Part shown: in pieces, positions 3,848-6,618 of the stretch | Position numbering within the stretch: the stretch's first letter is position 1 | Layout of the letters: each line of letters starts with the position of its first letter | Source of the DNA: a virus | UHGV virus genome: UHGV-0112548 | DNA length: 13,225 nt | Reading direction: 5' to 3' (one strand) | Program-made: the position numbers and the translations under genes | Notes under the pieces: generated by a model | Told to the model about the DNA's origin: nothing | Seen by the model: only the letters and a program-made list of their open reading frames with translations | Database searches by the model: none

Positions 3848-4045
3848 TTATGCCGCAGCACTGTTAGTCTTTTGATATAAAGACACGTCAACTTTCAGTT
3901 TCCCGTTAGTAATTTTTTCTAACTGGTACGCTCGGCCTTCAGGAATAATCTCAGGCCACTCTGAAACAGACGGATGCTTAATACCTAGGGCTTCGGCAGT
4001 TTTACAAACTCCGCCGAAATAATTAATCACGTCGGATTTCCGCAT
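3848..4045 (-). CDS. cro: Cro-like repressor (YdaS-type HTH)
   Basis: 65 aa, divergent from the CI gene; NYFGG..KTAEALGI..SVSEWPE..IP..RAYQLE..T.GKLK matches the small Cro/YdaS-type HTH pattern; GGGAG SD upstream of the ATG at 4045. Confidence 0.7.
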   Translation of the reverse strand: MRKSDVINYFGGVCKTAEALGIKHPSVSEWPEIIPEGRAYQLEKITNGKLKVDVSLYQKTNSAAA

Positions 4046-4140
4046 TTCTGTCTCCCGTTAAATTACGTTAAGCAGAAATGTAGGATATCCAACATACCAA
4101 TGTCAAGAATCCTACATGGGCATGTGGTAGGATTGCCTAC
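4046..4140. promoter_or_regulatory. divergent PR / PRM-like promoter-operator region
   Basis: On the minus strand: TTGACA (plus 4101-4106), 18-bp spacer, TACATT (plus 4077-4082) with the 18-bp operator ATGTAGGATATCCAACAT (4078-4095) over the spacer and -10. A second symmetric element AATCCTAC-N11-GTAGGATT (4108-4134) overlaps a TAGGAT -10-like hexamer 7 nt before the cI ATG, implying a leaderless cI mRNA as at lambda PRM. Confidence 0.55.
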
Positions 4141-4794
4141 ATGATGAACATGAGTGATCGTATTCGCCAAAGGCGAAAAGAACTGAACCTGACACAACAA
4201 GCACTGGCTGATTTGACTGGTGTGAACCGTGTCACGGTTACTGGATGGGAAAAGGACGACTACCAACCAAATGGAGCCAACCTTCAAGCCCTAGCCAACG
4301 CACTTAAATGCGATCCTCTGTGGCTTGTTAGCGGAAAAGGCTCGCCTGAACCAAAGATAAATCTAAAACCTGAAATATTCGCAGTTAAAAAAGTCCCCCT
4401 CATCTCGTGGGTTCAGGCGGGTTCATGGACAATGACGGAGCCTGGTGTCAGGAAAGAAGATGCTGAAGAGTGGGTTTATACTACCGCCCTTGTATCAGAA
4501 ATGGCATTTGCACTACGGGTCCGTGGTGATTCAATGACCAATCCCCTCGGCTCACCATCGATACCAGAAGGTTCTATCGTTATCGTAGAGCCAGATATTA
4601 TTGATACAGAGTGTATTAACGGAAAAATCGTTGTTGCCCATATCAATGGTGGGCAAGAAGCGACACTCAAAAAATTTGTTGAGGACTGGCCGAACAGGTA
4701 TCTCGTCCCACTAAATCCTAACTATAAAACTATTGAATGCGGTGAGAACTGCAGAATAGTTGGTCTTGTCAAACAAGTAATAATGGATTTTTGA
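4141..4794 (+). CDS. cI: CI-type prophage repressor (HTH_XRE N-domain + S24 LexA-like autopeptidase C-domain)
   Basis: 217 aa; N-terminal HTH (LNLTQQALADLTGVNRVTVTGWE), C-terminal serine motif VRGDSM and downstream lysine (ATLKKF); divergent from cro across an operator region; no SD upstream. Confidence 0.85.
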   Translation: MMNMSDRIRQRRKELNLTQQALADLTGVNRVTVTGWEKDDYQPNGANLQALANALKCDPLWLVSGKGSPEPKINLKPEIFAVKKVPLISWVQAGSWTMTEPGVRKEDAEEWVYTTALVSEMAFALRVRGDSMTNPLGSPSIPEGSIVIVEPDIIDTECINGKIVVAHINGGQEATLKKFVEDWPNRYLVPLNPNYKTIECGENCRIVGLVKQVIMDF

Positions 4795-4815
4795 CACATC
4801 TTCCTCACTATCGCA

Positions 4816-4840
4816 AAACCGGGGTATCCCCGGTTTTTTT
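4816..4840 (+). terminator. rho-independent terminator downstream of cI
   Basis: AACCGGGG-TAT-CCCCGG GC-rich hairpin followed by a run of seven T (4834-4840), about 20 nt after the cI stop. Confidence 0.7.
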
Positions 4841-4856
4841 ATGAGCCTATCTTTTT

Positions 4857-4910
4857 ATGTAGGATAACCAACATAAACTCTTGACACTCACATGTTGGAT
4901 ATCCTACATT
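4857..4910 (+). promoter_or_regulatory. PL / OL-like promoter-operator
   Basis: TTGACA at 4881-4886, 18-bp spacer, TACATT at 4905-4910. Operator ATGTTGGATATCCTACAT (4892-4909) is the exact reverse complement of the PR operator at 4078-4095; a second copy ATGTAGGATAACCAACAT lies at 4857-4874. Confidence 0.55.
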
Positions 4911-4992
4911 TGTTTTTAGAGTAGCCGCCGGTGGCATATGAATAACCGGATGATTCGCTGACAGAAAACTTAGGTTGGGGGTAGAGGTTTAC

Positions 4993-5358
4993 ATGAATCA
5001 TTTATTCACATGCTCATTTTGCGGAGCAACCGAACTGGGAGCGATAAAGATCGTCGCAAAAGGTGGTAAGGACGAACCTGCCATCTGTTCGGAATGCGTA
5101 GTCACATGTGTAGAAAAAATGATCCTGACTAAAAAATCAGAGGCTGAAAAACCAACCTCTGATAACGAAATAATATCAGTCGATAAAAAACTATTTAAAG
5201 AGCTTCTTCAGCTTGTCCTCAACCTTCCTGATTTCGGAAGTAAGCTGGCTGCTGTTGACATTGATAGTAGCTCCACATCGACAAGTGAAACTTTTGTTCG
5301 ACTTGAGCCAAGCGATTTTCTTCTTCGTCTTAGTGCCGCACTTAGGGCATGCGGGTAA
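4993..5358 (+). CDS. small protein with ClpX-type C4 zinc finger (ClpX N-terminal zinc-binding-domain-like)
   Basis: First ORF downstream of the PL-like promoter; ATG at 4993 after a GGGGGTAGAGG SD (the track start at 4975 is an alternative). CSFCGATELGAIKIVAKGGKDEPAICSECVVTC parallels ClpX [30 protein letters not shown]; no AAA+ module follows. Confidence 0.55.
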   Translation: MNHLFTCSFCGATELGAIKIVAKGGKDEPAICSECVVTCVEKMILTKKSEAEKPTSDNEIISVDKKLFKELLQLVLNLPDFGSKLAAVDIDSSSTSTSETFVRLEPSDFLLRLSAALRACG

Positions 5359-5388
5359 CGTAATTTCCTGGTTATCAAAAGCGCCCAT
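5191..5388 (-). CDS. small zinc-ribbon protein, antisense to the 3' half of the ClpX-zinc-finger gene
   Basis: 65 aa from the second ATG (5388), which has an AAGAGGG SD about 7 nt upstream. Contains CPKCG..(18 aa)..CRCG and a Lys-rich tail. Overlaps 5191..5358 of the plus-strand ORF, so one of the two may be a shadow ORF. Confidence 0.4.
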   Translation of the reverse strand: MGAFDNQEITLPACPKCGTKTKKKIAWLKSNKSFTCRCGATINVNSSQLTSEIRKVEDKLKKLFK

Positions 5389-5481
5389 AAACATCCCTCT
5401 TGGTTGTGTGAGAACACCAAGATACCACCGCGCCTGATGTGGTTAAAAGCAGGCTAAAGCAATAACAAGTAACTCCCTGTT

Positions 5482-5531
5482 CTGGCGGCCCGGTGTTTTC
5501 CCGTGTATTTCCGGTAACCGCCAGCCTTTTT
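5482..5531 (+). terminator. putative terminator-like hairpin (tL-like) in the leader upstream of rdgC
   Basis: CTGGCGG (5482-5488) pairs with CCGCCAG (5519-5525) around a ~30-nt loop, followed by CCTTTTTC. The loop is long for a classic terminator. Confidence 0.3.
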
Positions 5532-5536
5532 CAGGG

Positions 5537-5648
5537 CACAACAGAAAAGGGCATCACCGGGCGACGGGCTCATAACCCAATCCACCCGGGCAAAAAGAAA
5601 GCGGTCTCTGCAAGCCGCCGACCAATGCAGGTGCCCTTCTCTGTTGTG
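5537..5648. other. long-range inverted repeat (17 bp, one mismatch) enclosing ~78 nt; predicted long RNA stem in the early-left leader
   Basis: CACAACAGAAAAGGGCA at 5537-5553 versus TGCCCTTCTCTGTTGTG at 5632-5648 (reverse complement CACAACAGAGAAGGGCA). Confidence 0.4.
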
Positions 5649-5700
5649 TATGGAGAAACTAACTTTTTAGCGCCGGTGCAGAGGCGTTGAGGAACCGAGA

Positions 5701-6618
5701 ATGAACAATCCGTTTTTCAAAAATATGTTGGTGTATCGCATTAGTCGCGATTTCACCATCAACCAGGAAGAGCTGGAACAGCAGCTTGAACTATTTCGCT
5801 TCACTCCATGCGGTAGCCAGGATATGGCAAAAACCGGTTGGGTATCACCACTTGGTCAGCTGTCAGATCGCTTGCATCACACTGTCAATAATCAAGTGTT
5901 GTTGGTTATTCGCCGGGAAGAAAAAATACTGCCATCTCCTGTCATTGCTGAAGAACTGCGCAAGCGTGTGTCGCGTCTGGAATCCGATCAGGGGCGTCGC
6001 CTCAAAAAAACTGAGAAAGATTCGCTGCGTGATGAAGTGTTGCACTCCCTGCTTCCTCGGGCGTTCTCCAAAAACTCGACTGTTAGTTTGTGGATCAACG
6101 TCACCGACGGTCTGATCATGGTTGATGCAGCCAGCGCTAAACGTGCCGAAGACTCACTGGCCCTGCTTCGTAAAACTCTCGGTTCTCTCCCGGTGGTACC
6201 GCTGACTATGGAAACGCCGATCGAACTAACTATGACCGAATGGGTTCGTTCCGGTAGTGCGCCTGCTGGCTTTGGCCTGGGTGATGAAGCCGAACTGAAA
6301 GCTATTCTTGAAGATGGCGGTATTGGACGCTTTAAAAAACAGACTCTGGTCAGTGACGAAATTCATGTGCATCTGGAAGCTGGCAAAGTAGTTACAAAGC
6401 TGTCTATCGACTGGCAACAGCGCATTCAGTTCGTTCTTTGCGATGACGGCAGCATCAAACGCCTTAAGTTCTCTAATGAGATTACAGAACAAAACGACGA
6501 TATCGACCGTGAGGATGCGGCTCAGAGGTTCGACGCTGACTTTGTTCTGATGACCGGCGAGCTTATCTCTCTCATTAACGGATTAACAACCTCTCTCGGC
6601 GGCGAAGCCAAGCGATAA
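5701..6618 (+). CDS. rdgC: RdgC-family recombination-associated protein (prophage-borne paralogue)
   Basis: 305 aa; [62 protein letters not shown] and [14 protein letters not shown] track E. coli RdgC along its full length as I recall it. GAGGAA SD before the ATG. Confidence 0.85.

Follow-up and report, generated by a model that had tools for sequence, protein, structure and literature searches.

The window, by which we mean the whole 13,225-nt stretch of virus genome UHGV-0112548 analyzed here, comes from an e14-like lambdoid prophage of Escherichia coli and spans its immunity and early region; within it, two convergent genes share 168 nt on opposite strands. One is the first early-left gene (4993–5358, plus strand, 121 amino acids), which is annotated in identical prophages by the Prokaryotic Genome Annotation Pipeline (PGAP) and whose open reading frame (ORF) is open from 4975; its protein is composed of a likely N-terminal ClpX-type C4 zinc finger (residues 6–41), a linker, and a 55-residue C-terminal tail that is antisense to the other gene. 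The other is a zinc-ribbon gene of 65 amino acids on the minus strand (5388 to 5191, the ORF beginning at 5394/5388), which has no annotation and is evidenced by its homologs, its intact ORF, its ratio of nonsynonymous to synonymous change (omega), and its AlphaFold2 prediction. On balance, and judging from a comparison of sequences across relatives, we favor the interpretation of the two as a genuine antisense overlapping gene pair made by overprinting.

Two Frames in Codon Complement

The proposed dual-coding region extends over 5191–5358, where plus codons 67–121 and the stop correspond to minus codons 11–65 and the stop; this is 168 of the 198 nt of the minus ORF (85%), with the first ten minus codons (5359–5388) lying past the plus stop. 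The frames are exact codon complements, plus position 2 being minus position 2 and plus position 3 being minus position 1. The plus stop TAA (5356–5358) is antisense to minus Leu11 (TTA), and the minus stop TAG (5191–5193) is antisense to plus Leu67 (CTA). The minus ORF is preceded by a Shine-Dalgarno sequence (AGAGGG, 5400–5395, minus strand) 6 nt before the ATG at 5388, which is kept as AAGA(A/G)GG in all homologous contexts, and its product shows the motifs CPKCG (Cys14, Cys17) and CRCG (Cys36, Cys38), a basic KTKKK patch, and a C-terminal helix.

A preliminary description of this DNA had already pointed out the Shine-Dalgarno sequence and a CPxCG-type zinc ribbon, both of which are present as just given, and had remarked on the low complexity of SSSTSTSETF in the plus tail, a stretch that proves to be the exact antisense of the second zinc knuckle (FTCRCGAT). 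It had also described the minus ORF as lying fully antisense to the plus gene, which holds for plus codons 67–121 and the stop and needs correction for the first ten minus codons, which are outside. The possibility it raised of a mis-set gene boundary can be dismissed: no boundary is wrong, and what is missing is the annotation of the minus gene. The plus gene is the sole coding sequence (CDS) annotated here by PGAP, and the minus gene is missing in all three RefSeq records inspected, including E. coli Nissle 1917.

In any single sequence such an overlap is unremarkable, since an open codon-complement antisense frame is found in 24% of 54-codon windows in the ordinary genes of these phages. 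This frequency favors an explanation that we weigh further below, namely that only the minus gene is functional and that the plus tail is passive read-through without a selected function. It is only by comparison across relatives that the overlap becomes significant.

The Zinc-Ribbon Gene and Its Family

An exhaustive phmmer search of 1.84 billion representatives returned 331 clusters of homologs of the minus ORF at E ≤ 1e-3 (9 of them at E ≤ 1e-10), mostly stand-alone proteins of 62–76 amino acids aligned over query residues ~2–63. The family consensus reads FD…I.IPCP.CG.KT.KSI.WIK.N..F.C.CG..I.LD…F..EI.K.E..L, and in an alignment of 23 members C17, K23, W27, C36, and C38 are invariant, with C14 and G39 nearly so. 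A word-indexed protein search had given a single cluster for the minus ORF from these prophages, which we initially took for the signal of a shadow ORF; this was overturned by the exhaustive search, and the single cluster arises because gene callers always prefer the longer plus ORF in this clade.

Contigs of viral, metagenomic, and genomic origin yielded 25 distinct copies from enterobacteria. The minus ATG is the same in all of them, 23 have the full 65-codon ORF to the same stop, and the zinc-knuckle motif is kept in 21, the exceptions being one C36Y, one G18A, and two R37K. Of the two copies with a broken ORF, one has a 1-nt deletion that destroys both frames and the other is a decayed pseudogene. 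Among the individual loci, L023, L038, and L075 have a 1-nt deletion near the plus stop, with loss of the minus N-terminus and a plus ORF longer by 26 codons; L087 is a decayed copy whose minus ORF contains a stop and lacks a start, with the plus frame remaining open; and in L024 and L069 the change of Cys36 to Tyr in the minus protein is a change of Thr to Ile in the plus protein.

AlphaFold2 predicts a confident zinc ribbon with a C-terminal helix for the minus protein (predicted local distance difference test [pLDDT] 78). No Pfam domain or informative name is attached to the members of the family, a profile search having given “hypothetical” names only, and no Pfam or NCBIfam model covers this family of ~70 amino acids. 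Searches for a function with PDB, BFVD, PADLOC, Pfam, NCBIfam, and PHROGs gave generic zinc ribbons or nothing; no model of a defense system, toxin, or regulator matched, and PADLOC gave no hit. An identity as Lar, Com, or YnfU was considered and rejected, the scores being 17.7 bits for Lar (cut-off 28.6), 15.9 for Com (22.9), and 16.9 for YnfU (36). In the collection of cultured phages, one record only carries the zinc-ribbon cassette, without annotation.

The minus gene also seems to be equipped with its own signals. An intrinsic terminator is found on the minus strand at 5136–5163 (12-bp stem, 4-nt loop, U6 run), 28 nt past the minus stop and within the linker of the plus gene (−22 kcal/mol, z −6.3). 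The U run adjoins this hairpin on the minus strand only, and a hairpin is found at the site in every homologous context, with stems that differ and covary through compensatory changes. On the other side of the gene, a promoter-like leader block (5399–5454, minus strand) is kept in all 16 contexts aligned; it consists of a −35-like TTTAAC (5447–5442), a 17-nt spacer with the dyad CCAC…GTGG (5442–5425), and an extended −10 TGgTATCTT (5427–5419), and a second dyad, CTTGG…CCAAG, is located at 5421–5399. The conservation in all contexts amounts to ~75 nt upstream of the minus ATG, and homology stops just beyond. From this arrangement we infer that the block is the promoter of the minus gene, and it could be a promoter with an operator. 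No convincing LexA box was seen in the conserved block by eye, no formal test having been made, and an Rfam search of 4700–5800 found nothing relevant. With promoter-like leader, Shine-Dalgarno sequence, ORF, and terminator, the minus gene appears to be an autonomous, moron-like cassette of ~330 bp (roughly 5136–5465).

Selection in the Minus Frame

Because every 3-nt unit of the overlap is one codon of each gene, OLGenie-style counting is possible, in which changes are classed as nonsynonymous (N) or synonymous (S) in each of the two frames (NN/NS/SN/SS). For the 25 sequences, this gave a dNN of 0.13, a dNS (minus-synonymous) of 0.66, and a dSN (plus-synonymous) of 0.25. The overlap-aware omega of the minus frame (dNN/dNS) is 0.19 (confidence interval [CI] 0.11–0.31), and 0.13 (CI 0.07–0.24) for the first 18 sequences. 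Amino acid identity is higher in the minus than in the plus frame in 285 of 300 pairs (means of 76% vs. 65%), and variable sites are distributed over minus codon positions 1/2/3 as 28/17/44, a pattern that fits the minus and not the plus frame. The region of SSSTSTSETF illustrates this: the plus residues vary as T/A–S/A/P–T/A opposite an invariant minus C-R-C, as the minus frame holds Cys-Arg-Cys while third positions change.

These results bear on the possibility that the plus gene alone is genuine and that the minus ORF is just the shadow of a plus protein rich in Leu and Ser. In favor of a shadow, RefSeq and PGAP annotate the plus CDS only, and in the protein database the minus ORF of these prophages is represented by a single cluster. 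Against it stand the 331 clusters of stand-alone homologs in unrelated genomes, Cys ligands that are kept while the opposite plus residues vary between T and A and among S, A, and P, an omega of 0.13–0.19 with the codon-position pattern of the minus gene, a Shine-Dalgarno sequence, terminator, and conserved leader of its own, and a confidently predicted fold, so that we regard a mere shadow as effectively refuted. The minus ORF is almost certainly a real gene missed by RefSeq. Its protein belongs to a family that is old, widespread, and uncharacterized, and this protein appears to be the dominant constraint on the DNA of the overlap.

It can further be asked whether the minus unit serves chiefly as an antisense RNA directed in cis at the first gene transcribed from the early-left promoter (PL), similar to lambda oop or P22 sar, with the ORF being incidental. 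The convergent geometry with a terminator inside the plus gene would suit such a role, as would the promoter-like block, which is common to other cargo genes of the same site (see below). We nevertheless find this very improbable: the strong purifying selection at the protein level and the wide protein family indicate that the ORF is not incidental. An antisense RNA effect could exist beside the minus protein.

Probable Maintenance of the Plus-Strand Tail

The N-terminus of the plus protein scores 26.2 bits against PF06689 (cut-off 27; E 7.6e-6, residues 6–41) and has a CSFCG…CSEC motif; the PF06689 match is precomputed for close relatives of the protein, which in addition matches phrog_20296 over its full length. 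For the tail, copies were collected by a search with the minus frame, which avoids ascertainment on the plus frame. Of the copies in this set, 18 have an intact minus ORF; all 18 have a plus frame that is open over the 54 shared codons, and all keep TTA or CTA at minus Leu11, that is, the plus stop. The minus Leu and Ser codons do turn over (CTC, CTT, CTG, and TTG; TCG, TCT, TCC, AGT, and AGC); TTA, CTA, and TCA are never used elsewhere within the overlap, and all three occur in the nine non-overlapped minus codons. When evolution under selection on the minus frame only was simulated on the same tree, with proportions of synonymous and nonsynonymous change (pS/pN) matched, all 18 copies stayed uninterrupted in 0.2–0.7% of runs, about 10 of 18 being expected to be broken; for 25 copies, the probability of no interruption was 0.0003–0.002.

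Some nine N-terminal parts, unrelated to one another, are found joined in frame to the tail: the ClpX zinc finger, an AlpA helix-turn-helix, PF27050, a 143-amino acid coiled-coil protein, an N-terminal region of 171 residues, leaders of ~35 residues of two kinds, and two more. No arrangement with the N-terminus out of frame with the tail or separated from it by a stop was found in the enterobacterial clade, and the testable N-terminal parts evolve as coding sequence, with an omega of 0.13–0.37.

A third line of evidence comes from synonymous change in the minus frame. The minus-frame dS is 1.75 in the non-overlapped codons 2–10 and 1.69 in the loop codons 30–52, and is as low as 0.31 in codons 12–29 and 0.53 in codons 53–65 (column-permutation p < 5e-5; parsimony counts were also made). 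This 3–5-fold drop starts at the plus stop and comprises two segments, which are antisense to plus LEPSDFLLRLSAALRACG and LFKQLLQLVLNLP, each with one predicted helix of the tail (109–120 and 65–76). Conserved RNA structure as a cause of the suppression was not significant (alifold z −1.6 and −0.65). At individual positions, minus Arg54 is encoded by AGG or CGG only (or replaced by Gly, GGG), which keeps plus Pro79, and the plus Ser of EPS is kept through a switch from AGC to TCT or TCC that turns the minus residue from Ala into Arg or Gly. Going by the predicted structure, the tail would have two short segments that form helices and are under constraint, with a linker of low complexity evolving freely between them. 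We consider it very likely that the tail belongs to a real protein; that it is kept by selection we judge, from these comparisons, to be probable, with somewhat less assurance.

Several observations weigh against this interpretation and against parts of the pair as we describe it. The omega of the plus frame (dNN/dSN) is 0.51 (CI 0.33–0.79) for the 25 sequences and is not significant. As an empirical null, six families of ordinary genes from these loci were put through the same estimator in their non-coding antisense frame; the null median is 0.81, and 17% of 54-codon windows have values of 0.51 or less, so that the plus value lies inside the range of phantom frames. The AlphaFold2 pLDDT of the plus tail is 35–53, which fits a young or disordered peptide and equally a non-functional one. 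The simulation assumes a simple model of mutation and one omega throughout, the suppression of synonymous change in Lys-rich segments could partly reflect avoidance of poly-A (a preference for AAG), and a comparison of rates with the neighboring segment (dS of the plus N-terminal part) is confounded by mosaic recombination and gives a hint only. As for the minus promoter, which the preliminary description had proposed to look for upstream of 5388, a simple consensus scan missed the conserved TTTAAC–17–TGgTATCTT (8/12 matches, below threshold), and the leader block could instead work as RNA on the PL transcript, as a two-hairpin element.

An earlier estimate of 0.33 for the plus omega, from 18 sequences, had seemed significant, and this was lost with the divergent copies and the empirical null (0.51, the 17th percentile). 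The frame-wise comparison of substitutions in homologs that had been proposed as a check on the pair thus gives a divided answer: the minus frame is clearly selected (0.13–0.19), and for the plus amino acids the dNN/dSN contrast is not below the null.

Passive read-through of the minus gene would account for the plus omega within the phantom-frame null, for the low-confidence prediction of the tail, for a plus amino acid identity below that of the minus frame in nearly all pairs, for an open complement frame that a quarter of ordinary windows also have, and for the distant family members without an overlap (see below). It does not account for the lack of any interruption in 18–25 divergent copies, where ~10–14 would be expected (P 0.0003–0.007), for a plus stop fixed at one codon, for nine independent N-terminal fusions that are all in frame, with none out of frame or separated by a stop in the clade, or for minus synonymous change that falls exactly where the plus frame begins; we hold it to be unlikely. 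The frame could also be kept open for the passage of ribosomes, with less Rho-dependent polarity on rdgC and downstream genes or with the mRNA shielded from the minus RNA, and with its sequence being irrelevant. This would agree with the significant maintenance of the ORF in the face of a selection at the amino acid level that is not clearly so, and with the position of the tail exactly opposite a convergent unit with its own terminator. However, ~340 nt before rdgC are untranslated anyway, a Salmonella relative tolerates ~870 nt of untranslated antisense cargo, and both the fixed stop and the segment-specific suppression of synonymous change are left unexplained, making this even less likely than passive read-through.

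Polarity of the Overlap and a Site for Varied Cargo

The distribution of the zinc-ribbon family is far wider than that of the plus tail, and its distant members show how the gene is found without the overlap. In a distant GC-rich phage (L088, 3001–3216), a homolog with 46% identity lies antisense between the first early-left gene and a DUF1376–rdgC operon, and the neighboring first early-left gene ends 69 nt short of it; this synteny suggests that the position is conserved as well as the protein. Another distant homolog has stops in the antisense frame. Short ClpX zinc-finger proteins with a stop of their own also exist (P0013, P0014; phrog_5259). The distant homologs that are not overlapped by a called gene or have stops, the wider family, and the short zinc-finger proteins together lead us to regard the plus tail as the derived, overprinted frame. 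The preliminary description had left the choice between translation of both ORFs and a shadow on one of the strands; the evidence favors two real ORFs, and the polarity between an older, constrained minus gene and a younger plus tail had not been foreseen.

The leader block is found in ~430 E. coli genomes. In the e14 element of K-12 (L093, 2501–2555), it is located directly upstream of ymfI, with compensatory changes in the second dyad (GCTGG…CCAGC); ymfI converges with ymfJ, and the two CDSs overlap tail to tail by 63 nt. A “potential SOS box” has been listed for ymfI (PMC6590174). A relative in Salmonella (L094, 2501–3018) has a 66-amino acid ClpX zinc-finger gene with its own stop, followed by a reverse BssS-like gene, and ~870 nt of antisense cargo remain untranslated after the short zinc-finger gene. 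Between the zinc-finger and the BssS-like gene of this relative there is an apparently bidirectional terminator, and two further genes called there (71 and 64 amino acids) look like spurious ORFs in a conserved non-coding region. The varied cargo at one site, comprising the zinc ribbon, ymfI, and the BssS-like gene, points to a slot for reverse-oriented cargo immediately after the first PL gene; of the cargo observed, the zinc-ribbon gene alone is read through on the opposite strand. A link to the “phage repressor (pr)” gene of Nissle prophage 3 (PMC5987069) was considered and discarded, as its primers do not map to this locus.

The Immunity and Early-Left Region

Near-identical copies of the region are found in strain AH04 and, for the gene pair, also in Nissle 1917, whose cassette is identical. 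A cro-like gene (3848–4045, minus strand) and a LexA-like repressor gene (4141–4794, plus strand) diverge from an operator region, and a PL-like sigma-70 promoter (TTGACA–18–TACATT, 4881–4910, plus strand) was identified by a consensus scan (10/12 matches) and by its overlap with an operator. A search for repeats found two 18-bp palindromic repressor operators at this promoter, ATGTAGGATAACCAACAT at 4857–4874 and ATGTTGGATATCCTACAT at 4892–4909, and a third copy of the palindrome (ATGTAGGATATCCAACAT and variants) at 4078–4095, between the cro-like and the cI-like gene. As the palindrome overlapping the promoter recurs between cro and the repressor, we assign 4881–4910 as PL with its operators, and the three palindromes would mark the operators of PL and of the early-right and repressor-maintenance promoters (PR/PRM) of this immunity type. 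The gene pair had been placed between PL and the repressor; it is PL that lies between the repressor gene and the pair.

The plus gene of the pair (ATG at 4993, with a GAGG Shine-Dalgarno sequence) is the first PL gene, and rdgC follows at 5701, with ~340 nt untranslated between the plus stop and rdgC. At the end of the repressor gene, a hairpin with a T run is present at 4815–4840 (−17 kcal/mol, z −3.9). It is preceded by an A run and followed by a T run, and is absent from the list of terminators given by the consensus scan; with these flanking runs it could terminate transcription in both directions, and it could be a backstop for minus transcripts that pass the terminator at 5136–5163.

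Two further elements were noted between the pair and rdgC. A stretch of 55 nt (5537–5591) without an annotated feature is matched by ~260 E. coli genomes at 90–95% identity; it includes a small G+C hairpin, and the scan flagged 5566–5552 as terminator-like on the minus strand. At 5523–5537 (minus strand), GCCCTGAAAAAGGCT is close to the hairpin sequence of lambda boxB, but lies on the strand opposite to PL transcription.

Discussion

If the two genes are an overprinted pair, the following course can be proposed. In the enterobacterial clade, the first PL gene lacks a stop before the cassette and reads 55 codons of it antisense; the resulting tail ends at a fixed stop, complementary to minus Leu11, and would have been kept through at least nine exchanges of the N-terminal part to which it is joined. 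In the lysogen, PL would be repressed, and the minus cassette would be transcribed from its own promoter, with transcription stopped at the terminator before PL. Upon induction and cleavage of the repressor, strong PL transcription would run head-on through the cassette and the plus protein would be made; the minus gene would be suppressed by transcriptional interference and RNA pairing, and the two products would alternate. We see an even chance that convergent transcription couples the expression of both, as the preliminary description had suggested. In e14, ymfJ is induced late in the SOS response (log2 fold change 4.8), with a weaker rise of ymfI (PMC11002266).

As working guesses, the minus product may be a small accessory factor of the lysogen that binds nucleic acid or protein, and the plus product may be an early lytic protein, with the tail as a module for interaction or stability. 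A more far-reaching proposal, which we put forward tentatively and consider rather doubtful, is that the 165-bp overlap is a selected bifunctional toggle between lysis and lysogeny, in which a zinc-ribbon protein of the lysogen and a C-terminal module that is portable and belongs to the first lytic protein exclude each other through head-on transcription. Both products may then act on each other or on a common target, and, as part of the same doubtful proposal, the module would have arisen de novo antisense to an ancient gene and then been recombined onto at least nine N-terminal domains.

Long antisense coding overlaps in bacteria and phages are contested, mainly because the evolutionary evidence for them is usually weak. 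The pair described here is an unusually clean comparative case, with an old family gene embedded antisense for 85% of its length in an annotated gene and with measurable signs that the second frame is maintained too. It exposes a systematic gap in annotation, with the better-conserved gene missing from the three RefSeq records inspected; it offers a natural example of antisense overprinting whose new peptide became a shuffled C-terminal module; and it marks out, in e14-like prophages and e14 of K-12 among them, a slot for reverse-oriented cargo that has a conserved leader.

Among named small zinc ribbons, Lar (PF14354), YnfU, Mu Com, and the TNB ribbon of Cas12f/TnpB resemble the minus protein in their small size and their CxxC…CxC topology; they differ in that all scores of the minus protein are far under the family cut-offs (E 0.004–0.01, 16–18 bits vs. 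23–36), and fold searches match it only to generic ribbons such as ribosomal eS27/eL42 and HVO_2753. A close parallel in arrangement is ymfJ/ymfI of K-12 e14, where the first gene after a LexA-like repressor likewise converges with a reverse gene and the same leader block lies upstream. In contrast to the zinc-ribbon protein, YmfI has 113 amino acids without a zinc ribbon and is unrelated cargo, the overlap is a short 63 nt, both genes are annotated, and a shared shuffled C-terminal module is not evidenced in e14.

The antisense overlapping genes of E. coli O157:H7 are reported to rest on RNA sequencing and ribosome profiling (PMC9927249), and are similar in that a coding ORF with its own expression signals is antisense to an annotated gene. 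The present case differs in that the ORF without annotation is the old family gene, the annotated tail is the novelty, and the evidence is comparative.

In viral overprinting, one frame is widespread and well folded, and the other is restricted, less conserved, and predicted to be disordered; the classical cases are mostly on the same strand. The zinc-ribbon gene and the plus tail share this asymmetry between an old folded frame and a restricted, poorly conserved one, and differ in being antisense in codon complement, with the new frame a C-terminal extension recombined onto many N-terminal domains. Phage morons, as known from the HK97 and HK022 literature, are autonomous units of promoter, gene, and terminator inserted in phage operons, normally between genes. 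The cassette is compact like them, with a promoter-like leader and a terminator of its own, and the cargo likewise varies at a fixed slot; it is set apart by being read through on the opposite strand by the neighboring ORF. We see the pair as a new and well-supported case of something known but rare, a dual-coding region produced by antisense overprinting, rather than as a new kind of system.

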